64,000 nt of DNA from Protoeuglena noctilucae (lineage: Eukaryota). The DNA is taken from NCBI GenBank assembly GCA_958009085.1, contig OY253671.1:992001-1056000 (forward strand), given 5' to 3'. The notes below the pieces were generated by a model. It saw only the letters and a program-made list of their open reading frames with translations, was not told the origin of the DNA and did no database searches. Below are positions 89 through 14,236 of this stretch, piece by piece; position 1 is the stretch's first letter; each line of letters opens with the position of its first letter. The position numbers and the translations under genes are program-made.

Positions 89-2388
89 TCACCACTCTCC
101 GTTCGTGAGTGCGTCTAGCACGTCCTTTTCTGTCATCCACTGGCCTACCAGCACGCAATGGCCGTTGCACCGGGCGCGCCGGGGGCAGCATCGCCGGTGG
201 GCTGCCGCGCTCAGGCATCCCGAATGCCCCCGCAGCGCATTGGAAGTTCCAGCGAAGGGCGCAGCGAGCCAGGGACACGTGGCCAGTGCTCCGGTGGCAG
301 CAATGACGCTCGCATCGACGCCGGCAGGGGCAGCCATCGCGCTGTTACCCGCCCCGTCGCCCACGTCACCCTGCGCCGCGTCAGCGATGCCGACATCGTC
401 GCCGCTGCACCCCAGGACGAGCACGGCCAGGTTGCGCAGGTTCTCCATCGGCGGACACCAGACACGCGCGAAGGATTCGCAGCCCCAGGCGCCCACTGCA
501 GAAATGCGGGACAGGGAGGGGAGGCCGCCGAGGGCGGCGCACAGCCGCTGCGCCGTCCGCTCGTCGAGGCGGCTGCGGGGGCGAGAGACAGATCATCGTG
601 ACGTGCACCGTGTAGGCTGCTAGGACACGGGCCTGGCTGTCATCGCAGCGCAGGCGCCGCACCCTGAGACTGACATATCGATGCGGAAGTGCGTCAGTCC
701 CTCCATGACGGCGATCGCCCGTGTGCCCGCCTCAACGGCCGATGGCTGGTAATCCGTCAGCGCACACTCGCTCAGGTCCAGCGCCTGCGAGAGACGGGCG
801 AGAGCACGTTCCGACCCGGGCATCGCCACACGCCTGGCAGCGGCACAAAGCTGCTCGGTCCAACACAGGCAACGTCAGCTCGCTAGGCCGCGTCGCTCGC
901 CTGGAGGCCGCGGAGTGCGGCCAGCACCGCGACCCCTGCCCACGTCACGTGTTCGTTCCACGCCAGGCTCAGCCGCGTGAGGCTCGTGAGTCCCACCAAC
1001 CGCGGGAGCCCCTCGTCCGTGATGCCGGCGCCCGGCGCGCGCTTGGGCAGCGGGCGTCGCTGGCCAGGTGGCCCAGCAGACAGAAGGAGGCACTGGAGGG
1101 CGGGGACGCAGTGCAGGTACTGCATGCCCTCATCGGAGAGGAGCGACGACGCGGAGAGGTCCAGGTGCGTGAGGGACGACATGCCCTGCAGGGTCTCGAG
1201 GTCCAGGTACGGTGGGGCGCCGGACGTGGAGGCCCGGTGGAGGTAGGGCAGTCGGAGGGCGCGGAGGTGGCAGAGGCGGGAGAGGCCGTCGAAGGGGCGG
1301 TCGCATCCGCTGTAGAAGAAGGCGTCGGAGATGGCGAGGGAGGTCAGGGCGGACAGCGCGGTGAGCTGGTCCAGGCCCGGGTCGTCCCAGCACTCGACGC
1401 AGAAGCGCTCGAGGGAGAGCTCGCGCAGGCTGGAGAGCCCCGCCATGCGCCGGACGTCCGAGGGCGACAGGGACATGCGGTGGGTGTTGCCAGCCCGGGA
1501 CCCCACCAGGGCCAGGGACTGCAGGCCAGTGAGGGCCCAGAGACCCTCGAGGCTCCCCGGCACAAACTCCGGCTCTGAGCTGGAGACGTGGTCGCTCCAT
1601 TGGAACCACTCAGAGGGCGAGACGGAGAGGCGGGTCAGTTGAGTGAGGCCAGACGCCTCGTCCGCCTGCAGCGGGGCGACGTCCACGGCGCGCAGCGAGA
1701 GCCGGGAGAGGGACGGATGGGTGCGGCACAGGCGCAGGAGCGCGGCCCAGGGGTCGCTCGCGTCCCTGCGGGGGCCACGGAGCGGCGCTGATTGTGCGGG
1801 GCGAGCCATCAGGTGGGGTGAGGGCATGGTCGCTGGGCAATGCGGGGCTCACGAATCTGTGGCGCGGCTGGGGCGATCATCCTCCTTGGCGAAGGGATTG
1901 GGGTCGTAGTTGGGCTCGGGAATCGCATATGTGTCGCTCCCCAGCTGCGGTACCTCGACGGTGGCGTCCAGATCTGTGGCAGTCGGGCGCAAGCGGCGCT
2001 TGCCACGCAAGAAGGCGGGTGACAACTACGTCGCGCGCGCCCAACTCAGATTTACCGGTGAGCGCTGGCAGCCGAGCAAGAATCACCGCGTCCTCTGCCT
2101 GAAAGAGAACTGATGGCCCGTCCAGCTTGTGCGCGTGGTGGATGCAGCGGGTCGTGGCATCTCGCGCTTGCTTGCAACTCAGACTGCACGAAGCAGAGTT
2201 AGAGTCGCACATCGGGAGGCGATCGCGGAGCCGAGATGCCCCGGCGGCGCGCACGCGGGCGGCTCGGCAGCCCACCGGAACGCGTGCTTGGTCTCTTGCG
2301 AGCAGCGCAGAAAGACTTCTGCCAGCAGCTCGGGAGGCATGTCCAGCAGCTCCAGCTGCGGGCGCTGCGCATCCTGCGGCTCGGCCAT
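89..2388 (-). CDS. F-box/RNI-like leucine-rich-repeat protein (multi-exon)
   Basis: N-terminus MAEPQDAQRPQLELLDMPPELLAEVFLRCS resembles an F-box. Many LRRs follow (LSSLRELSL, LSALTSLAI, LCHLRALRL, MSSLTHLDLS, LTSLTRLSL, ITDEGLPRL). Last exon ends WMTEKDVLDALTNGEW* at 89. Confidence 0.75.
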
Positions 2389-2992
2389 CCTTGGCAGACT
2401 GGATTCACAGAGTCGCGGTGAAAGGGCGACGATGATTTGGGGCTGCAGGCGATGGGGGGTGGATAAGCAGCATTCAGCCAACACCTGAAGGTGACAGACG
2501 ACTGGATGGCATCAACTGGCATACCCAATTTGCCAGTCTTCGAGTTTTGGCACTATTGATGCTTAACAATCCCTCTGCATCTGTATCGCAACGCAGTCAG
2601 GCACGGGGGCGCATCTGGCCAATAGGCGGAGTTGGCTTTCTGCTGACCCGCATGTCGCAGAACATGCGCCGCTGATCGTGCGCTCCTCCAGCCCCTGATC
2701 CGCTTGCCAGGTCAATACATCGTGTTCGAAGCAGCAACAAATTGACGGTGGAACCTACCTGTTTAAAGCCGTCTCGACGGGGCTTCGCCTGATTTAGCGA
2801 GGTACCTTACCTTGCCTCGCCGATAGTTCCTTTAAGAAAGAGGCGGGGCTTGTGCGAGTAGAGAAAAGGAAAAGATGTCGATTGCGTCGGCAGCGCGAGC
2901 GCTAGCGATCGAACGGCGCAGAGCGGGAGGGTCAAACAATGCGGGCTAACACGGTTTCCTCGCCGCATCTGCAGGGCTGCGCTCCAGCAACG

Positions 2993-5900
2993 ATGGGGAA
3001 GGGGATCTTATCTTCTTGCCGCGCCTGCTGCCGCTCCTGCTGCTGCTGCGGCGGCGGCGATGGCAGCAGCCACGGCGGCAAGCTCTTGTGCGGGGGATGC
3101 GGAGGGGGCATGTGCGGATCCTGCGCCTCTGGCGGCTATGGAGGAGGTTCCACAGCTGGCTACGGAGGGTGTTTCGGGTACGGTGGCAACGGTGGCGGGC
3201 ATGGCACGTACTGGGGCCCGGGCGGCAGAGTGCGCATCATGCCGGCGTACAACCACCCCACCCGAGATGCCCACCACTCCTCCTCAACCAGCACCGTCTA
3301 CGACGTGCAAGACGGCTACGTGGTGCGTGCCGCTACCCGCTCGCGAGGCCCAGCAGGGCTAGGCCCCAACCACACCGCTGAGTCGGGACTGCTCTACACG
3401 CACATTGGCCTCTCCGTGGTCACAGTCATACACAGACGGCGCGATCGAGGACGTGAAGATCGTCAACTACTCGGGCATCGCGGTCGACATCCTGCTCATC
3501 GACCACGAGAGCGAGGGCGGCAGCAGCAGCAGCGGGAGCCACGGCGAGGTCAAGAACCTCGTCGTCACCATCCCCGCGCAGTCCCGATGCCTGGTCAAGC
3601 TGCCGCAGGGCGGGTGGATCCGGGCCAAGCCCGCGGACGGCGGCAAGGCCCGTCTCTTCTTCACCGAGTCATTTGAGAGGCGCGGGGGCCTTTTCAACTG
3701 GGGAGCGGCACGCACGGTGCTGCCGGAGGCCGCCCTGCCGCGCACGCTCTGGTTCTGCCCGATGGTCCACTACGAGACGCACCGTGCCGTGGTGGGCGTG
3801 CACCTGCTCAGTGATGCCCACAGGCGAGGGGCCCGCAGAGCGACGGGGGCTGCTGCGCACGCTTTGTCGTTGCCCGCACCGCGGCCAGACAGCCTCTCCC
3901 ACGCGTGTTCCCCCGCAGCATCCAGCCGGCCTACGTTGACAGCTCCGGTGGCGTGCACGAGAAGCGGCCCGTCAACCGCATCAAGGAGCTGATGGCCAAG
4001 GCCAGGGCAGCCGCGGCAGCGATCCGTCTGCAGGGGATGGTGCAGCGCCCGCCGCGGCGGGCCCGCAAGTCCCAGAAAGCCCTGGCTGCCGGCCAGGGTG
4101 CGCAGAAGAAGGAACGGCGGAAGACGGTGCGATGTGAGTGCCGCAGGCACGCCCTGGCTGCACAGCCAGAGCTGCAGTCGCACCTGCCGTGCCCAGCTGT
4201 TGCATGGAGGATGCATCCGCAGTGGCCGCCGCTGCGAGCCGAGTGCCGGGTTCTGTTATCCTAAACCGCAGCCGTGACGACCAAGAAGTCAGAGAGGAAG
4301 AAAGCACCGAAGAAGAACGCCAGCGCGGCTGACATGGCCCCGGGTCACGTGGCGCCGGCCCCCCTGTCCCTGATCAATGCGTTCCCGGCGAGGAAGGGGA
4401 AGCTGACGCCGCTCAAGGGGCGGGGCGAGGACAAGGGAGGTGGCGGGAAGACGGACGGCAAGGCGGGTCGCAAGGGGTGGCGAGGGACTCTGCGTGCCAC
4501 CAGGCTGGGGCCGGAGACGGCGAAGGGCGGGCGGGCATTGGTGGATTGCGAGGGGCGCGCGAAGCCCGGCGCGCCGCCCGCGGGCCACCCGGCTGGGGAG
4601 CCAGGGAAGTGGCACTTGACGGTGGCGCTGGTGTGGGTGTGGGTGACGCCAGGCAGTCCCGATTGGGGCGAGGCGCAGGCGGTGGACAGGGACGGCAAGG
4701 CATCCCCGGAGACGCGGCCGAACGACGACGCGCTTCGGTCGCTGGGGGGCGGCTCGGGCTCTACGGGTGGTGCGGGCGGGGACGGAAATGGCACGGGCGG
4801 TGCTGGGGTCGGCACAGGTGGGGAGGGCAAGGGTGAGGGCAGGGATGGAGACACGAGCCTTGTTGCGAGGGGGGGAGGCGAGAAGGGCAAGGGTGGGAAT
4901 GGTTCGGGGAAGGAGGGCAAGGGTGGAGACGGAAATGGAGATTCGAGTCTCGTTGCGATGGGGGGAGGCGAGAAGGACATGGGTGGAAGTGGCAAAGGGA
5001 AGGAGGGCGAGGATGGGGGTCGTTTGGGCGAGATGGGCAAGGGTGGGAGTGGCTTGGGCGAACGGGGCAAGGGTGGGAGTGGCTTGGGCGAACGGGGCAA
5101 GGGTGGGAGTGGCTTGGGCGAGATGGGCAAGGTTAGAGACGGAGACAACGACACGAGCGTTGGTGCGATGGGCAGAGGCGAGGCTGCCGGGCAGACGGTG
5201 CCGGGTCAGGGTGCCTTACAGGCGCACACCACGCCTGGAGGTGCGACGGTTAGAATATCTAGCGACCAGGGGAGTGGGCAAGGAGGTGCAGGGGTCGAGG
5301 GCAATGCAGAGGGAGCGGGACGGGCCGGGGGGGACGCAGGAGTGCCGATTGGCGAGCTGGGGCGATGGGAATTGGTGGACGGCGAGTGGCGGTGGGCGGC
5401 TGCTGAGGGGGGCGAAGGGGGCGTCGATGGCGCAGGGCGGGGCGAGGGCGGTGCAGCGGACAGGTGAGGACGTGAGGGTGGGTGTGCGCATGTGAGCTGT
5501 GCACGTGTGGGCTGCGAGTCGACGCCGTGTGAGACGCTGCTCGCAGGGTCAGTGAATTTCGCATGGATTGGATCGAGGATGCGTTTGCAGACAAGGCTGA
5601 CAAGGACGGCAATGCGCGTCCCACGGAGCCTCCCCCGAGGAAGGGCCACTGGGTGCTGCAGGACGGGGAGTGGACGTGGGTCGAGGACCCCATTGCATTG
5701 ACGTTCATTGAGGACGGCAGCAAGACGGAGTCCAAAGCGCCTGCCTCAGGTGAGCGCATGCGGCGGTGCGGACTGCGATGGGAAGTCACGCGTAAGGGAT
5801 AGAGCACGGTCCTAGTTTCCCTCACGATGAGGTTGAGTAAATTTGATAGTAGCAACTGTTGCCACGAACGCTGCGCTCTCAGGGGACAGGCCGGGTGGGG

Positions 5901-8900
5901 TAGTGGTGAGCGAGTCGGGGCGTGGCGTGGGCGACCCACAGCTGCAGTTTGTGGATGAGGATGGGAAACGCAAGCAGGGCGGGGAGGGTGGGCAGAGTGG
6001 CAGGGTGGGTGGCGTGGTGATAAGTGAGTCGGGCCGAGGTGTGGGCGACCCACAGCTGCAGTTTGTGGATGAGGATGGGAAACGCAAGCAGGGCGGGGAG
6101 GGTGGGCAGAGTGGCAGGGTGGGTGGCGTGGTGATAAGTGAGTCGGGCCGAGGTGTGGGCGATGCTCGGCTGCAATTTGTAGATGAGGATGGGAAACGCA
6201 AGCAGGACGGGGAGGGCAGAGAGGGTGACAGGGGTGGGGTGGCGGTGAGCGACTCGGGAAGGGGTTTGGCTGAACCTGAGCTGCAGTTTGTAGATGAAGA
6301 TGGGAAACGCAAACAAGGCGGGGAGGTTGGGCAGGTTGACAGGGCGGGTGGGGTGGTGGTGAGCGAGTCGGGGCGAGGCTTGGGCGACCCACAGCTGGGC
6401 TTTGTGGATGAGGATGGGCAGCGCAAGCAGGGCGGGGAGGGTGGCAGGGGTGGGGTGGTGGTGAGCGAGTCTGGGCGTGGCGTGGGCGACCCACAGCTGC
6501 AGTTTGTGGATGAGGATGGGCGGCGCAAGGGCGGCCAGCAGGGCAGCGATGGCACGGCCCCTGAGCCTGGCCGTGTGCGAGTGGACGTGGATGGTCCCAC
6601 AGATGGCTCCATTGGCCTTACTCTGCTGGACTCCGATGCTCCCAAACCTGGCCAGGGCGAGGGCGGCGTGGGTGCTGCTGCGGCCAACGTCGTGGTGTCG
6701 ACCGACGCTGAGCAGGTGAGTTGCACAGCGTGTGCAAACAAGCGAGCGGCTGGGTGCGAGATGCCCCGCGGTGTGCTGTTGAGCACGAAGGCAGTGGCCT
6801 GCAGCCACCTGTGCATGCTGTGCGTGGCTGCAGGTGGATGCCAGCGGGCAGCCGGCTCCCACCGAGCCTCCGCCGCGCAAGCGGGGCATGTGGGTCTTGA
6901 TCGACGGGGTGTGGACGTGGATTGAGGAGGGCGACCCACTGTGGGAGGCCCTGATGAACGCCAAGCCGAAGCAGCAGGTGGCAGAGGGCATCTCAGACCT
7001 TCTCAAGGACCTTCGTGATAAGCCCGCGGATGCCCCGAGCGTGGCGGAGGGCCAGGTCTCTGTGGATGGGCCTGAGATTGAGGCGGAGGTGTCGGGGCAG
7101 GCGGGCGAGGGTGGAGGGGCAGGCGAGGGAGAGGGTGAGATGGTGGGGGAGGTGCTGGAGATGGTGGGGGAGGAGGTAGAAGAGTCGGAGGAAGAAAGCA
7201 TGGACGAGGATGAGGGTGTGGATGAGGAGGGCGACGAGGAAGGCGACGGCGAGGGTGGGAGCGACGAGGAGGGCGCCAGTGTCAAGAGCGAGGTGAGGGA
7301 ACTGGAGCGAGGAGGCACAGCAAACTTGTGGAAACTAAGCTCTCGCTTTGCTGAAGATGAGCTTGGTGGCATGCGACGCCGCGTCGTGAGGCTATGCGGG
7401 GGCGAGAAGAGCAGCGTCATTGTGTGCTTGCAGCGGATCCCTGGGCGGTGGGTCATGCGGAACGGAGAGTACTGCTGGAAGGAGCAGGCGAGGCGTGCGG
7501 GTGGTGCATGGCTCCTGGGCGCTTGCGGGTTTCCGAAGCTATGTAACTCCATAGTATAGGTCATGGTGCATGCCGTTTGCGTCTGTGCAGGGCGAGGTGT
7601 GGACGGAGGACGAGGAAGAGGGCGACGGAGAGGGCGAGGATGGGGATGGGAAGAAGAAGAAAAAGCGAGAGGACGGCCCCCCGCAATTCACGCAAGTGGA
7701 GCTGCAGCGTCCGGAGGTGCTGGACGTCGTGGCGGTGCAGTCGGTGAACGTCAAGCCCAAGAACAAGCTGAACGTGACGATCGTCAACGCGGAGAGCGCC
7801 AGGGTGGAGGTGCAGGTCATCCAGGCCAGCGGCAACCGCACCACGCACGTCATACTGGTGAGAGCGCGAGGGGGCTGGCAATGCCGGGCGTGGTTGCCAC
7901 AGCCAGAGCATAACGCGTGACGCCCTATGCCGCATGCCGGTCACATGCCAGTCGTTGCGTAACACATCAGCTAATTTGTCGTTTTTGTGTCGCCCTCGCA
8001 GGGACCCAAGCGGAAGTGGAAGGGCCGCCTGGCCGCGGGCACCTGGTTGGCGCTCGTCAACCTGTCTGACGGCAGCGACCCGCTCTTCTTCGAGGAGACG
8101 CTCGTCCCCAGCTCCTTCGCCACTCGCACCAAGGCACGTGGAACATACGGGCGGGTACAGCAATGACACGGGGTCATGCTAGTTACTAAGCGATGCGTTG
8201 TGGTTTACCCATTGTGGTTGCCCCACAGCCGAGGGTTGCGTGATCTCAATAACCTGACGAACCCTTGCGTGACTGCAGAAGAGGCACCCACCAGGTGCCA
8301 GCGCGCGCACGTGCTGGATGGTGCCGCACGAGGGGCGCAGGGGCTACGACGTGCGGCTCGAGGTCCGCCTGGTGTCAGGTGCGAGGACAGTCATACCTGT
8401 CACCTCACCGCCTGGGGTGCAAGCGCGGTGCAAGGCCCTGGCCGTTGGATTGCTGGCATACAGAAAATGGCTTGAATTTGTCTCTTGGTTTGACATGACC
8501 CCTGCCAGGTCTCGCAGCACCGCCACGATCAGTCCATGCGCCCGCCCCCGCCCGCAGCCATCGACGGGCGGCTCCTCCCCATCGGCTTCCCTCACAAGGG
8601 CGACCTCGAGGGCCCCGAGGTGATTGAGTTCACGAACGTCAACAGCACGGGCAAGATCGACACCCGCACCCGCGTCGTGTTCCGCAACACCTGCTCCTAT
8701 CCCGTGGAGATCGAGTACGTCGACCACGAGGGCAAGACCGCCCGGGAGCTGACCCTGAAGCCCATGGCCATGTTCAGGACGACCGTCGATATGGGATCAT
8801 GGCGCAGGTGATGACACCGATACCTGACCGTGGTTCTGTGCGGGCTTTTCCTCGCTGGCTCAGTGGCTTGCGCTGGAAGCAGGGGGCTGGCACTGATGCG

Positions 8901-9237
8901 AACGAACAGCGGTGCCGTCGCTCTCTCGGCACCTGGGCACCTCATCTGCCACGCCGCCACGCTCCCACGCAGGCCGGTCAAGAGCGGTGACGCGGACGGC
9001 AAGACCAAGCTGTACTTCGAGGAGATCATGGACTATACGGGGCCGGGCTTCCCCGCGTACACGCCCAAGGGCGCCTCCCCGCGGGTGTTCTGGATGGCGC
9101 CTTACAAATCCGACCAAATGTGGGAGCCCAAGCTGTACATCCGGCCGACCAAGACCGTGAAGGCGGCGGTCATCGACGTCGACCTTTCCGCTTCCCAGGA
9201 CATCGGCTTCCTTTCGCTGCTCATGATGAACTCCTGA
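2993..9237 (+). CDS. Large multi-exon repeat protein: Cys/Gly-rich N-terminus, three VHL-beta-like domains, Gly-rich and 38-aa tandem repeats, Trp-motif repeats
   Basis: Exons join in frame via GT-AG and GC-AG introns (e.g. 7488-7590, 8134-8278). Starts MGKGILSSCRACCRSCCCC. Three homologous ~120-aa domains at ~3440, ~7730 and ~8620. Ends LLMMNS*. Confidence 0.7.
5025..5132 (+). repeat. 30-bp coding tandem repeat (GKGGSGLGER-type, ~3.5 copies)
   Basis: gggcaagggtgggagtggcttgggcga repeated with period 30. Confidence 0.9.
5890..6530 (+). repeat. ~114-bp coding tandem repeat, 6 copies (GGVVVSESGRGVGDPQLQFVDEDGKRKQGGEG)
   Basis: Near-identical units starting near 5927, 6041, 6155, 6266, 6381 and 6482, all within ORF 5843..6925. 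Confidence 0.95.
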
Positions 9238-9412
9238 GCTGCCTGGCTGTGTTGTGCGCGCTGTGCGCTCCAGAGATACGCGCATTGCGGAGAGCGGACC
9301 GCTCCGGCTGCCTGGGCATTCAAATAGATAGTCGGGCAGCTAGCTCTGAGTCTAAATCTTCTGCATCACGAGGGCCCACATAGGCTGGAAAAACGAGGCA
9401 CGAGTCAACGCA

Positions 9413-11218
9413 TCACGCAAACGCGGCGGCGAGTACTGCGCCCAGCAACGCCGCAGCCACGGCCGGCGCGGCGCAGGCGCTCGGCGTGCTGGCGGGCGTG
9501 GTGTTGGTCCCGGTGGGGGAGCTCGGCCCGGATTTGATCGGGCTCGAAGCTGCAGGGGTAGCCGAGGAGCCGGACGGCGCGCTGGCCACCGTGGCGCCCA
9601 TGCCTCCCTTGAGCAGCGGCGCCTGGGACGCAGACCAGCAGGGGCACCACAGCGTGAACTGGATGGAGCCCTGCGAGGTGGTGTACGTCTGGGCAGTGGA
9701 GGAGCACTCGGAGTAGAGAGCCTTGCACTGGGCCAGGGTCTGTGTGGCGCCGTTGCCGTAGCAGCCCAGCGTGAATGGGCCGATGTCCTGGATGTGGTAG
9801 TGGTAGAAGGGCGTCGTGGGCACGGTGCCGTCGGTCTTGGGCGCCAGGCCGATGTGCCCGCCGCACGCGTCCAAATCCGTGGGGGTCGCGGAGGTCGACT
9901 CGCGGACGCCGTAGATGCCGTAGCCGTCCAGCGCGACGCCGACGAGGTTTGAGTGGCCGGAGGTCGAGTGGTCCACTGCGGGGGTAGGCAAGTGGAATCG
10001 CAAGTTTCAAATTCGGACCCATCGCGTGCGTGGAGCCAGGCGGCGGCTGATATGGGGTGACTCACCGCACGTCATGGAGTGGTGGAAGTGGTAGGGGCTT
10101 GCGTGAGCGCCGCAGCTGTCCGGCAGCATGCCTGTGATGACGTTGGACGTCCCGCACTCGTAGTCGAGCTTGGCCTCGCACGTGGGCACGTCCATGCCGG
10201 CGGGGCAGACCCCGGCGTTTACGGTGCAGGCCTGGTTGGCGGTGAAGCCGGCCTCGAGGGGACCGTAGATGACCATGCCTCCCTGTGAGAACGTGCACAG
10301 GCGTGCATGGCTCACGCGTGGCTCATGTAGGCTCCGCAGGCGTGGCCGAGCAGGTGGACGCTGCCAAGTGGGTGCGGTGCCGTCACGCCAAGCGCCTCGG
10401 GTGTGGGGCTCACAGGCGCTTCATGGCTGCACGTCACTCGCCTTGTTCGTCGTCACGTCCCACGAGTAGCCGACGGTGCCCAGCAGGGGCGCGCCATGTG
10501 CACCCGTGGCGAAGGCGGGGTCAGGGATGGTCTGGCTGGTGCACTGCGAGCGGAGCGGGGCAAGTTGAGGCCTGGCGTCGGGCACTCGTTCGCCGCAACA
10601 CGCCTGGCGCATCCACCCGCCCTCACCGTGGGGGACGGGTTGCCCTTGCTCCCGTAGGCGTAGTGAGGGCAGATGTTGGTGACCAATGTGCCCGTGAATC
10701 GTCCGTTGGACCAGGTCAAGCCCGAGGAATCAAAGTAGTTGCCGGATCCGTCGGAAGGGCACGGGGAAGACACGGAGGGGCAGGCCGTGCTCGTCGAGGA
10801 GCCGGTGCCGTGCGTGAAGGCCGGCACGGAGCCGTTCGTCTGCATGTGCATCCCTGTGCCGCCTCCGGGAGCGCCGCCGGGGGGCTGCGCGACGCAGCCT
10901 GCAAGCGAAACACTCGCCAGCTTGGGGCAGGCCAGCCGGGTCCTCGGAGCAACCTCCGGGACGGGCGCTGCTCCTGATTTGCAGCTCTATCAATGCACGC
11001 ACATCAGATAAACAAATTTCTGCCCGATGTGCGCCCGATTCCGCGTCCGGGGCGGTCAACGCGGCGAAACATGCTTGGGGCGCGCTGCGCCCGCTCGGGG
11101 CCCCGTTACGGCGTGCACTCCCTGTCAGAGACAGGGATCCCCATTTGTCGCGCAGCTCACCCACGGACATGAGCGCGGCGAGCGCCGCAACGGAAAGGGC
11201 AACGGAAAGGGCAATCAT
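9413..11218 (-). CDS. Secreted YHYH-domain protein, probably GPI-anchored
   Basis: Signal peptide MIALSVALSVAALAALMSV. Motifs HASPYHFH, GHSNLVGVALDGYGIYG, DLDACGGH and FYHYH. Ser/Thr/Pro-rich stalk and hydrophobic C-tail AVAAALLGAVLAAAFA*. Confidence 0.8.
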
Positions 11219-11368: not shown

Positions 11369-14236
11369 TCACGACCCCCCCTTGCCCCACCGCTCCTTCC
11401 GATCGCCCTCCAGAGCCTTGGCCGCGCGTTCTTTGACGCTGATCTTATCTTCCTGCAGTAGTGCAAGGGCTTTTCTTTTGAATTTCCGGGACCACCTCCA
11501 ACCCCGGGGTCCGGCCCCACCGCACCACGACCCACCTTGGCTTCCCCCCGGGACTTCCGCCCGAATCCGAAAAGCCCCACTCCGCCCTCCTCCTCCCCCG
11601 ACTCGAGGCGCTTCTGCTTCCGGAACGCGGCCGCTCCCGGAGGCAGACCCAGCGTGGTCCCCAGCATCGCCTGCGTGAGACATGGCAAGGGTCCAGCATG
11701 CCCTCGCCGGCCACTTGGAAAAGCCCGCAGCGCGGCGCAGCGTCCGCCCGCACCTCCGGAACCTCCTCGATCTCCTCCCAGAACCCATCGTCCCAGAAGT
11801 CAGCAGGCAGGGGCGTCGACGACCGGACGGGGGTGGCTGGGGCCACGGCAGGGGTCACGGGCGGCGCCGAGGACGCCCCGACCCGCGCGCTCTCCGCGGC
11901 AGGGGCCGCGGCGGGGGCGGGGGACACTCGGCCGGGCGCCGGACGGTCGGCGGGCCGGGCCTCGCGCGGCACGGGGGGTGCCGCCCCCTTGCGCAGCACG
12001 ACGTCCCTCAGCTCTGCAGGCGCGGCGCCCCGCGCAGCAGCGCCCGGCGCAACAGGAGCGGCGGGGACGGCTGCGGGCCCCGGGGACCTGGGCGGCGGGG
12101 GCGGGGAGGGCTGACGGGGTGGGGCCTCTGGGGCTGCCGCAGACACGGCGGTGGGTGGCGGTGCTTGCGAGGGTGCCCTGGCGCGCAGGGCCTGCGGGGG
12201 CGCGGTGGGCCCCGCCGGCGCGGAGGCGGCGCCCGGGCCGGCGCTGAGGTACGGCCTGGGGCTCCGAGCAGCGGGGCTGACGTGGCTCACGGACGGCGGG
12301 GGAGGGGCCGGGTTGGCGGGGCTCAACGGGGGCTGTGCGGGGGGCGCTGGGAGGCGGATGGAGACCCACGGACTGGGCTTGTCCTGCAGGCACGCGGGAC
12401 GTGCGTGGTGGCAGAGGATTTCTAACAACAGAGAGGGTCACGTTGGGTCGACTGAAGGACCCGCCTCACCTCAGCAGCATTGGCCCCGGCGCCGTCCCCC
12501 TTGCGCGCCAGCCCGCCGCCCGCCAGCGCACTGAGAGCCCCCCACATGGCCTTGTCCGTCTTGCCGCGCCCCGCAGCCTTGTCCTCTGCCGCGCGCGCCG
12601 CCTCGGCCGCGGCCGCACGCGCGGGGTCGTAGATGAGCACGACCGACGCCTCGACGACCACCTCCCCCGGCACCCCGCGCATCTCCTCCTCGGCCCACCC
12701 CCGGGGCGTCGCGCACACGGCCACGTCCACCTCGGCGGGTAGCACCGCCCGCACGGCGTTGGCGCCCGCCTGCACCGCCACCTTGGCCAGCATCTGGGCG
12801 TCCTCGGCGCCGCCGCGGAGGTGCACGCGGAGCTCCCCGTTCTCGAACGCGCGCATCTCGTTCGACGGCAGCGTCAGGCACACCAGCGCGGCCGTCGCTC
12901 CCTGCGAGACATGGCAAGTGGGTGCAACCGAGGATCGCCACGGTGCCCGCAGCTGGGGCGGGGTGCCGGAATAGCACCGTGTCACCGCAATCGCCGCTCA
13001 CCGCGAGCTTCTTCGCCAGGAACGGGGACCTGGACGCCGCGACAACCGCGTCCCCCGCCAGCTGGGCCATCAGGTCGAAAGTGAGCTCGGAGGGGCCCAG
13101 GGGGCACGAGGAGGAGCCCTTGCCGATGGCGCCGACGCCCTCGCGGCGGAGCGTCTGCCGCAGGGGCATGGGCAGCTCCAGGCGGGCGGGGTCCTGGTGC
13201 CGGCACCACATGAGCGCGCCCCGGGTGACCTGGGGTGGCGGCGGCGCACGGGCGCGGTGTGCGCCGCACGGGGGAGAGGGCGGCGACGCGCGCGGGGCCC
13301 TCGTCGGAGCGGCCATCACCTTGAGGACCTCCGGGGTGCCGGCGGCCTGCATCACGCAGAGGACGGCCTGCTCGAGGGCCGTGCTGCAGATGGCGCTGGC
13401 GCCCTCGACGGTGAGCGCCTGCGACCCCGGCATGCCCATCAGGACGTCCTGGTCGACGACGGCCACCACGTCCGCCACCCCGGCCTTGCGGAGGGACGCG
13501 ACGAAGTCCTCGGCGGCCTTGGCGCGGCGCGCGCCCTCGAAGGAGAGGGGCCGAGAGAGCGCCGCGACGACCACGCGGCCGTTGGCGGCGGACGCCGACG
13601 CGAGCTGCATGGCCGCCCGCGCCACGCCCGGTGCGCTCGCGGCGCTGCCCACCAAGAACAGGACTCCCAGGAAGGCACCCGAGCGGGAGGGCAGCATCGC
13701 GCGGATCTGGCTGCGGAGGGCGACGGGGCGGCGGGCGTCGCGACGAGCAACGCTGGACTCGCGTGGGATGGGCGTGGCACGCTGCACTCCCGCACCGGGA
13801 CTCGAAGGCCGTGATCTCGTCTGGCTTGGCTGACAGCGCGTCGATCTGAGTCGGCAACAGGCCCATGCTCTCGTCGCCCGGCTGCACCTGCACGACGTTG
13901 GGCGTCCGCGCCCGCGCCAAAACCTGGGAGGAAGGCGCAGGGTAAGTAGGGTAGGTCTCCAGTTCAGGGCCGCGCGCCCGCCCTGCGGCGACCGGAAGCA
14001 CGTCCTCACCTGCGCGTCCGTGTCAATGCACCAAAAGTCGGCTCCCGCGAGCACCCCGGACGCGACGAGCTGGTTGACGGTCTCGACACCCTGCTTGCCC
14101 AGGCCCACGATGCGGACCTCCCCGGGCCGCACACGCCCGCGCGGGGCGACGTCGGGGGTCGCCGGGACGCCCTGAGCCCGAATCTCGCGGCTGTCTCCGT
14201 CGAAAGCCTGAAACGCGGCCGAGGTTCAGGGGACAT
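11369..14236 (-). CDS. ARC3: ARC3-like plastid division protein (degenerate FtsZ-like domain, no MORN repeats)
   Basis: Transit-peptide-like start. FtsZ-like segments EVRIVGLGKQGVETVNQL, FWCIDTDAQ, PLSFEGARRAKAA and VVAVVDQDVL. The tubulin signature is replaced by GSAASAPG. Pro-rich linker, C-terminus ERAAKALEGDRKERWGKGGS*. Confidence 0.75.

Follow-up and report, generated by a model that had tools for sequence, protein, structure and literature searches.

The stretch from 2993 to 9237 of the 64,000-nt DNA analysed here (the window) raises the question of whether one gene encodes an unrecognised domain in three copies, and whether that domain is related to the beta domain of pVHL, as an earlier note had proposed. 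Three mutually similar modules of ~125 aa each were indeed present at the places given in that note, all on the + strand (Table 1). Identities were counted in MAFFT alignments using RNA-supported splice sites, and local BLOSUM62 scores were compared with those of 1000 shuffles. Modules 2 and 3 were identical at 34/121 aligned positions, with a local score of 115 (z 17.6) that no shuffle reached (0/1000), followed by modules 1 and 3 (31/120 positions; score 69, z 9.9, 0/1000 shuffles) and modules 1 and 2 (28/123 positions; score 46, z 4.4, reached by 2/1000 shuffles). The residues V, V, N, V, G, W, G, L, F, E, F, P, A, R, W and P were invariant across the three copies, and the C-terminal signature L-[FY]-F-x-E ... 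R-x-x-W-x-x-P, already pointed out in the earlier note, was found in all of them as well as in one outside relative (P0002, see below). The three modules are homologous to one another. No fourth copy came up when the entire window was searched by tblastn with the three modules; the next-best match (12062-12145, E 0.008) lies in an Arg/Ala-rich low-complexity frame and was discounted. Since z was ≤2.1 in all nine comparisons (9/9) of N-terminal with C-terminal halves, an internal duplication of the module was rejected. When exon fragments were aligned onto module 1 with MAFFT, fragments of the N-terminal half were repeatedly misplaced.

The DNA here is a spliced eukaryotic nuclear gene on the + strand, from a GC-rich marine eukaryote that is probably a microalga. 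A 12-exon model spanning 2993-9237, built on phase-compatible GT/GC-AG sites, gave a protein of 1547 aa (or 1578) free of internal stops, and the limits set by the earlier note fit this model, 2993 being the ATG and 9237 the end of the stop codon. Translation could start at ATG 2993 or, in the same frame, at ATG 2939, and a short ORF begins further upstream at ATG 2875. Among the 11 introns, five are RNA-confirmed (5/11) and six are predicted only (6/11).

Table 1. Exons of the gene model and the three modules, with positions in the window
Feature	Position	Strand	Description
Exon 1 (predicted)	2993..3322	+	M-G-K-G... start at ATG 2993; frame open 2906-3676; Cys/Gly-rich N-terminus; donor GTGCGT at 3323, in compatible phase with acceptor 3425/3426
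Exon 1, last 11 codons	3290-3322	+	probably first strand of module 1
Exon 2	3426..3823	+	carries module 1; GC3 0.85-0.97 in frame; predicted GC donor at 3824
Exons 3-4	3919-4133, 4272-5463	+	predicted junctions; GC3 0.82-0.90 in frame 2 over 3880-4690
Exon 5 (predicted)	5547..5749	+	GC3 0.85 in frame 1
Exon 6	5883..6715	+	3' end RNA-confirmed; frame open 1089 nt in purine-rich DNA
Exon 7	6834..7292	+	5' end RNA-confirmed; predicted 3' end, 7292 or 7385; GC3 0.74-0.90
Exon 8	7591..7857	+	acidic/basic linker, then N-terminal part of module 2 (7711-7857); GC3 0.87-0.95
Exon 9	8002..8133	+	middle of module 2 (G-x-W, L-F-F-E-E); then GC-AG intron 8134-8278
Exon 10	8279..8378	+	C-terminal part of module 2 (R-x-x-W-x-x-P and last strand)
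Exon 11	8558..8807	+	18-aa linker, then N-terminal half of module 3 (8614-8807); GC3 0.95-0.97
Exon 12	8973..9237	+	C-terminal half of module 3 (8973-9165), 23-aa tail, stop codon 9235-9237
Module 1	3290-3809	+	almost wholly in one exon (3426-3809); first strand probably at 3290-3322
Module 2	7711-8378	+	three exons: 7711-7857, 8002-8133, 8279-8378
Module 3	8614-9165	+	two exons: 8614-8807, 8973-9165

The modules are coding and transcribed. GC3 was 0.85-0.97 across the module exons, and contigs from 4/4 marine metatranscriptome runs matched the region, with no differing letters listed; this RNA support comes from one study and consists of assembled contigs, from which transcript ends are not readable. 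Five introns on the + strand were confirmed in this way (6716-6833, 7858-8001, 8134-8278, 8379-8557, and 8808-8972). The joint 6711>6830 (GT..AG with the cut at +4) sets the 3' end of exon 6 and the 5' end of exon 7, while 7856>8001 (GT..AG) was seen in 2 runs. The joint 8131>8277 also fits 2 places further right, where it becomes GC..AG, and lies on the same contig as 8375>8555 (2 runs); 8802>8968 was seen in 3 runs, in contigs that continue to 9282-9310. One contig of run X2 spans the joints 8131>8277, 8375>8555, and 8802>8968, and one of run X3 spans 7856>8001. Modules 2 and 3 are on one mRNA. Upstream, contigs covered 2832-3003 and 3019-3275 in the area of exon 1 and 3399-3634 within the area of the module 1 exon, and further on 4289-4817 (unspliced) and 6063-6469. 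RNA cover was absent from the bins 3719-4035 and 7206-7522, and no contig ties module 1 to the remainder of the gene. The genes on either side lie on the - strand, with CT..AC joints at 1764>1852, 2183>2276, and 9975>10066.

The earlier note had treated the region as one protein with a repeated domain. This holds for modules 2 and 3, which share a transcript, while module 1 would be joined to them through predicted junctions, so that all three would lie in one polypeptide. Alternatively, the region could hold two or more genes, with module 1 (about 2993-3992) being a separate small protein and modules 2-3 belonging to another gene. The strongest GT donor after module 1 (GTGATG after 3810), used with the best acceptor (3919), leads to a stop at 3990, the next frame is opened by an ATG at 3992, and it is here that the bin lacking any RNA contig lies. 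However, the frame stays open if a GC donor (GCGAGG after 3823) is used with 3919, and the RNA contigs prove a GC-AG intron in the same gene. Furthermore, the downstream frame already has a GC3 of 0.87 from about 3880, ahead of the ATG at 3992, and every other junction has consensus sites in compatible phase. We therefore regard a division into several genes as unlikely.

The modelled protein of ~1550 aa is long and mostly disordered, with 19% glycine and mostly low-complexity sequence, and has one module close to its N-terminus and a tandem pair at its C-terminal end. Exons 3-4 encode clusters rich in Lys/Arg and, after these, a Gly-rich low-complexity part with tandem repeats of 30/60/90 nt, as well as the first occurrence of a W-x4-G-x-W-x-W motif (5366-5395). 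Exon 5, bounded by consensus splice sites (GTGAGG after 5463, 5547, and GTGAGC after 5749), holds the second W motif (5650-5679) with P-T-E-P-P-P-R-K just before it. In exon 6, Tandem Repeats Finder detected a 114-nt (38-aa) repeat in 5.6 tandem copies (5893-6520), and exon 7 carries the third W motif (6891-6920), followed by an acidic tract from about 7086 to 7292. No matches were obtained when the PDB sequences were searched with the W-motif exon.

To what extent the module has relatives was addressed in public sequence collections. As claimed in the earlier note, the domain was unrecognised: hmmscan against Pfam gave no family for module 1 and only weak rows for the other exons, and a single true relative was found among 1.84 billion representative proteins. 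This relative, P0002 (phmmer E 1.8e-11), is a 125-aa predicted protein from a contig of 484,647 bases in an ENA assembly; it resembles the C-terminal half of module 1 at 32/71 identical positions and shares with it G-x-W-I-R-A, L-F-x-T-E, P-R-T-x-W-x-C-P, and V-H-Y; unlike the module, it is a fragmentary gene call, and its Pro-rich N-terminus does not align. The other three of the 4 phmmer matches at E≤0.001 (P0003-P0005) were internally repetitive proteins matched over short stretches only and were judged artefacts. A search of near-length proteins with a profile of the C-terminal half (A3) returned just P0002 and P0006, the latter being the exon 12 ORF of the window itself as present in the protein collection. 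Among longer proteins (234-2000 aa), none of 352 candidates for module 1 and none of 5301 candidates for profile A3 was significant, and no relative was found in the viral contigs scanned. Searching the ESM Atlas with the N-terminal half of module 3 gave no usable match, and with module 1 it suggested DUF5719 (score 0.92), which was rejected on account of a recognition value of 2062, below the 2300 mark, and no match to Pfam DUF5719. A single metagenome locus from a single-protein query (L001) was also rejected, as the match lay in an off-frame; by eye, the long opposite-strand ORF of its contig was transposase-like and the composition actinobacterial. From these searches, the module is nearly an orphan and appears to be lineage-restricted: a single outside relative turned up, and no known family was detectable.

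The pVHL beta domain has a V-x-F-x-N-x-S strand pattern and a G-x-W motif, is ~90 aa long, and is heavily represented in the PDB. The modules have both the pattern and the motif in common with it, which formed part of the reasoning behind the idea of the earlier note that they are far-diverged VHL-beta domains making up a trivalent hydroxyproline reader. The idea is also favoured by the all-beta AlphaFold2 models of the modules, by a roughly similar size class, and by the occurrence of VHL-beta domains outside animals (PMC7736814, PMC9002001). However, hmmscan at E≤10 listed no PF01847 row for 10 translations that together cover all the module exons, a result that excludes only matches better than about E 0.1, above which the HMMER filters drop most matches. 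No pVHL chain was listed at E≤10 when 177,635 distinct PDB sequences were searched by phmmer/hmmsearch with the module 1 sequence, the N-terminal half of module 3, an N-half profile (A2), and a whole-module profile (A7). The V-x-F-x-N-x-S...V pattern on which the resemblance was based is generic to beta-sandwich strands; indeed, the best PDB match of the profile containing it was a de novo designed Ig domain. pVHL was absent among the matches listed by Foldseek and VIA-align, but with query models this poor (pLDDT 44.7 and 52.2) its absence carries little weight. The module is also longer than the VHL beta domain and has a conserved C-terminal extension. The hydroxyproline pocket of pVHL comprises Trp88, Tyr98, His110, Ser111, His115, and Trp117, according to section 3.1 of PMC9528729. 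Compared by residue type within the alignment of the modules, no His, Ser, or Tyr column was invariant across the three copies, and a conserved Ser or His for such a pocket would be lacking. In a PF01847 search for bacterial VHL-beta sequences (profile cut-off 21 bits) in 401 genomes of one phylum, reached via locus L002, 4/401 matched at E≤0.01 and 1 was above the cut-off; this one was spurious, being an off-frame ORF overlapping a longer ORF. By eye, that longer ORF had regulator-like and cupin-like motifs. Nothing tested ties the module to the human VHL hydroxyproline reader, and we consider descent from VHL-beta domains highly improbable.

Recognition of hydroxyproline-rich algal cell-wall proteins, also raised in the earlier note, seems unlikely as well. 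The modelled protein contains no signal-peptide-like or membrane-spanning hydrophobic stretch (highest 19-residue Kyte-Doolittle mean, 1.27), and without a signal peptide, contact with wall glycoproteins is unlikely. Basic clusters (residues 306-325 and 1231-1236) and a long acidic tract, with 24 D+E in one stretch of 50 residues, are features typical of intracellular proteins. Because of the basic clusters, the acidic tract, and the lack of a signal peptide or membrane segment, the protein is probably soluble and intracellular, and possibly nuclear.

Two alignments were usable for folding, A7 (C-half rows) and A12 (N-half rows), and both AlphaFold2 models (n=2) were of low confidence. In these low-confidence models, DSSP assigned 6 and 7 strands and no helix, which tentatively suggests that the module is all-beta, with 6-8 strands in about 125 aa, and each module may fold as a beta-sandwich. 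The best structural Z (6.3) was at background level. A relation to MATH/TRAF-type domains, peptide-motif-binding beta-sandwiches that would suit a multivalent scaffold, was suggested by the second model, whose top 10 Foldseek rows were all SPOP MATH chains (E 0.029-0.12, non-significant; probability up to 0.54), with TRAF4 and TRAF6 lower in the rows; SPOP MATH rows were among the matches of the first model too. The length of the module also fits that of the MATH domain (about 130-140 aa). The Pfam MATH profile did not match module 1 in hmmscan and was not among the weak rows of the other exons, and we hold that the modules are very improbably divergent members of this group. Carbohydrate-binding or glycosidase-accessory beta-sandwiches (CBM-like) are a further, very improbable, alternative. 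For generic Ig-like, FN3, and CBM modules no match rose above background, and therefore no family membership can be claimed.

Together, these results favour, with a probability of about 0.5, a scaffold protein, soluble and intracellular, in which a lineage-restricted beta-sandwich module occurs three times as a putative binding unit. As binding units, the modules would give the flexible scaffold three attachment points, and their ligand would most likely be a protein or peptide. A far bolder proposal, to which we give very little credence, is that of an undescribed beta-sandwich family, confined to a narrow marine eukaryote lineage, whose three copies would together read a short linear motif or modified residue. 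In the boldest version of this proposal, the module would be a hydroxyproline reader of the VHL type that has diverged too far for profiles to detect; if true, this would place multivalent hydroxyproline recognition outside the oxygen-sensing pathway of animals.

As it stands, the protein is a typical lineage-restricted orphan, and it is mainly of value as a target for structure determination and as a record of a proposed VHL resemblance that failed on testing. The gene is expressed in the sea, as its presence in the four marine metatranscriptome runs indicates. With its three modules, long disordered spacers, and four hairpin-like motifs rich in Trp, its product would be a candidate organiser of multivalent assemblies. 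Should the module prove to be a new binding domain, it would add one more family to the many function-unknown proteins of marine phytoplankton.

Three homologous, transcribed and coding modules, predicted to be all-beta, are present in the studied region, two of them in one mRNA, and one relative is conserved outside it. With corrected splicing, the modules could be aligned over about 120 columns at 23 to 28% identity. The mutual similarity described in the earlier note was borne out against 1000 shuffles, none of which reached the local score of modules 2 and 3 (z 17.6) or of modules 1 and 3 (z 9.9), while that of modules 1 and 2 was modestly above the shuffles (z 4.4, reached by 2). Among other positions, the modules share V-x-x-x-N (second strand), G-x-W, D/G-G, L-[FY]-F-x-E, and P-x-x-A-x-x-R-x-x-W-x-x-P. 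No fourth copy was found within the 64-kb window, and half-against-half comparison ruled out that the module is an internal duplication of two halves.

For the gene model, the coding frame of each segment was taken from third-position G+C, and phase-compatible splice sites were then listed. The resulting 12-exon model encodes 1547 aa with 0 internal stops; an alternative donor at 7385 gives 1578 aa instead. RNA contigs of four metatranscriptome runs, placed on positions 1500-11000, agreed with the window there (no differing letters listed) and confirmed 5 of the 11 introns, the other 6 being predicted. Modules 2 and 3 lie on one mRNA, since a single contig from one marine run (X2) spans the joints 8134-8278, 8379-8557, and 8808-8972, and one contig from another (X3) carries 7858-8001. 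The splice inside module 2 (8133/8279) was also set by an RNA contig. Upstream of the M-G-K-G start at 2993 are an in-frame ATG at 2939 (+), 18 codons earlier, and a short ORF from the ATG at 2875 (2875-2949, +); the uncertain start codon (2939 or 2993) makes any N-terminal lipidation uncertain too.

Features of the gene and its neighbours (window positions)
Feature	Position	Strand	Remarks
Upstream neighbour	886-2353	-	leucine-rich repeats, E 7.4e-7; RNA-confirmed CT..AC introns
Exon 1	2993-3322	+	model
Exon 2	3426-3823	+	model
Exon 3	3919-4133	+	model
Exon 4	4272-5463	+	model
Exon 5	5547-5749	+	model
Exon 6	5883-6715	+	model
Exon 7	6834-7292	+	model
Exon 8	7591-7857	+	model
Exon 9	8002-8133	+	model
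Exon 10	8279-8378	+	model
Exon 11	8558-8807	+	model
Exon 12	8973-9237	+	model
Intron	6716-6833	+	GT-AG; 1 run
Intron	7858-8001	+	GT-AG; 2 runs
Intron	8134-8278	+	GC-AG after equally well-fitting 2-base shift; 1 run
Intron	8379-8557	+	GT-AG; 2 runs
Intron	8808-8972	+	GT-AG; 3 runs
Trp-rich motif W-x4-G-x-[WY]-x-W, four copies	5366-5395, 5650-5679, 6891-6920, 7449-7478	+	
114-nt tandem repeat	5893-6520	+	5.6 copies, 82% matches; 38-aa Gly/Glu/Asp-rich unit
Downstream neighbour	9335-10899	-	sole match a weak YHYH; RNA-confirmed CT..AC introns

The genes on both sides are on the - strand, and their CT..AC joints in RNA contigs (1764>1852, 2183>2276, 9975>10066) confine the + strand unit to about 2600-9330. 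The studied gene and its downstream neighbour converge at their 3' ends, which unstranded RNA contigs bridge. Three long - strand ORFs within 5259-7687, whose translations of 452, 396, and 602 aa are rich in Pro and His, were rejected as a second gene, being expected from the purine-rich, high-GC3 composition and shared wobble positions and disfavoured by the GT..AG joint at 6716-6833. The G+C content of the window is 64-75%, its reading frames are interrupted, as expected for an intron-bearing eukaryotic gene, and exons for Hsp70-like, Ras-family, ERG4/ERG24, and PLP-enzyme proteins lie elsewhere in it. The stretch was present wholly or partly in 8 of 12 listed public runs, with 0.99 of its sampled words found in four runs of one organism and 0.13 to 0.25 in four marine metatranscriptome runs of one study. 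The gene is therefore taken to be nuclear and to come from a marine eukaryote with GC-rich DNA that is probably a microalga.

The junction after module 1 is the weakest of the model: splicing from the strongest GT donor (3810) to the strongest acceptor (3919) gives a frame that ends at 3990, as would be expected if module 1 were a separate gene. The GC donor 3823|GCGAGG is the sole one keeping the frame open past module 1. Because another intron of the gene is a proven GC-AG one and GC3 is 0.87 in the downstream frame already from about 3880, one gene is favoured. We consider it likely that all three modules belong to it, and a separate module 1 gene unlikely. One GC donor is RNA-confirmed (8134) and another, at 3824, is needed for the single-gene model; such non-canonical donors may be common in the host organism.

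The earlier note had described the modules as VHL-beta-like, but a link to the VHL beta domain (PF01847) was not supported by the searches. At E<=10, no exon translation matched PF01847, module 1, with its entire domain in a single exon, had no match to any Pfam family, and PDB sequence searches with the modules returned no pVHL chain. What the PDB searches matched instead were de novo Ig domains (a 19-residue hairpin, seen twice, at E 5.7e-4), Ig domains of CEA (E 0.034), and, at E 0.18, a domain of the MucBP type, indicating that the N-terminal module pattern is a generic sandwich-strand signature. Bacterial VHL-beta sequences sought in 401 genomes gave spurious matches alone. The pVHL pocket residues named in section 3.1 of PMC9528729 are Trp88, Tyr98, His110, Ser111, His115, and Trp117. 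Compared with one another, modules 1-3 have no invariant His, Ser, or Tyr. Both AlphaFold2 models of module 1 were all-beta, with 6-7 strands and 0 helices, at a mean pLDDT of 44.7 with C-half rows (alignment A7) and 52.2 (pTM 0.43) with correctly aligned N-half rows (A12).

When module 1 was compared by phmmer with 1.84 billion representative proteins, 4 matches were obtained at E<=0.001, and the sole true relative among them was P0002, a 125-aa unnamed gene call from an ENA assembly (E 1.8e-11, 32 of 71 positions identical). The others (P0003-P0005) were rejected as repetitive proteins matched over short stretches alone. Word-indexed protein searches added nothing beyond the window's own ORF, and metagenome and viral contig scans gave no real relative. 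Judged by sequence, the module would be a new family within the collections searched, which may lack correctly spliced algal proteins. None of the papers surfaced by full-text literature searches concerned a repeated algal module of this kind, VHL-like or similar.

Outside the modules, the modelled protein has an N-terminus rich in Cys and Gly, basic clusters (residues 306-325 and 1231-1236 of the 1547-aa model), Gly-rich repeats, and an acidic tract in which one 50-residue window holds 24 D+E. A Sep15_SelM match (Pfam, 29.2 bits against a cut-off of 26; residues 145-168 of the 5837-6925 translation) is probably spurious, because it covers 24 profile positions alone, inside the repeat. The Trp-rich motifs, 2 of the 4 with P-T-E-P-P-P-R-K before them and acidic residues after them, look like short beta-hairpins and had no match in Pfam or PDB; the fourth (7449-7478) falls in a modelled intron, where an exon may therefore be absent from the model. 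Its Kyte-Doolittle mean over 19 residues peaks at 1.27, with no hydrophobic N-terminus. From these features, the protein would be soluble and intracellular, possibly nuclear, which makes contact with extracellular hydroxyproline-rich glycoproteins, the recognition once speculated for the modules, unlikely. A far-diverged trivalent hydroxyproline reader is highly improbable.

We are confident of the anatomy described here. One polypeptide chain of roughly 1550 aa would carry all three modules, with flexible low-complexity spacers presenting three copies of a putative binding sandwich, and the protein may act as a multivalent scaffold. A role in binding proteins or peptides is a tentative assignment, and a multivalent scaffold with three binding-sandwich modules is the best explanation overall, at a probability of roughly 0.5. 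Lineage-restricted orphans are frequent in phytoplankton genomes. The gene gives no sign of a new kind of mechanism: the module is new within the searched collections, and the kind of protein, sandwich modules on a disordered scaffold, is familiar.
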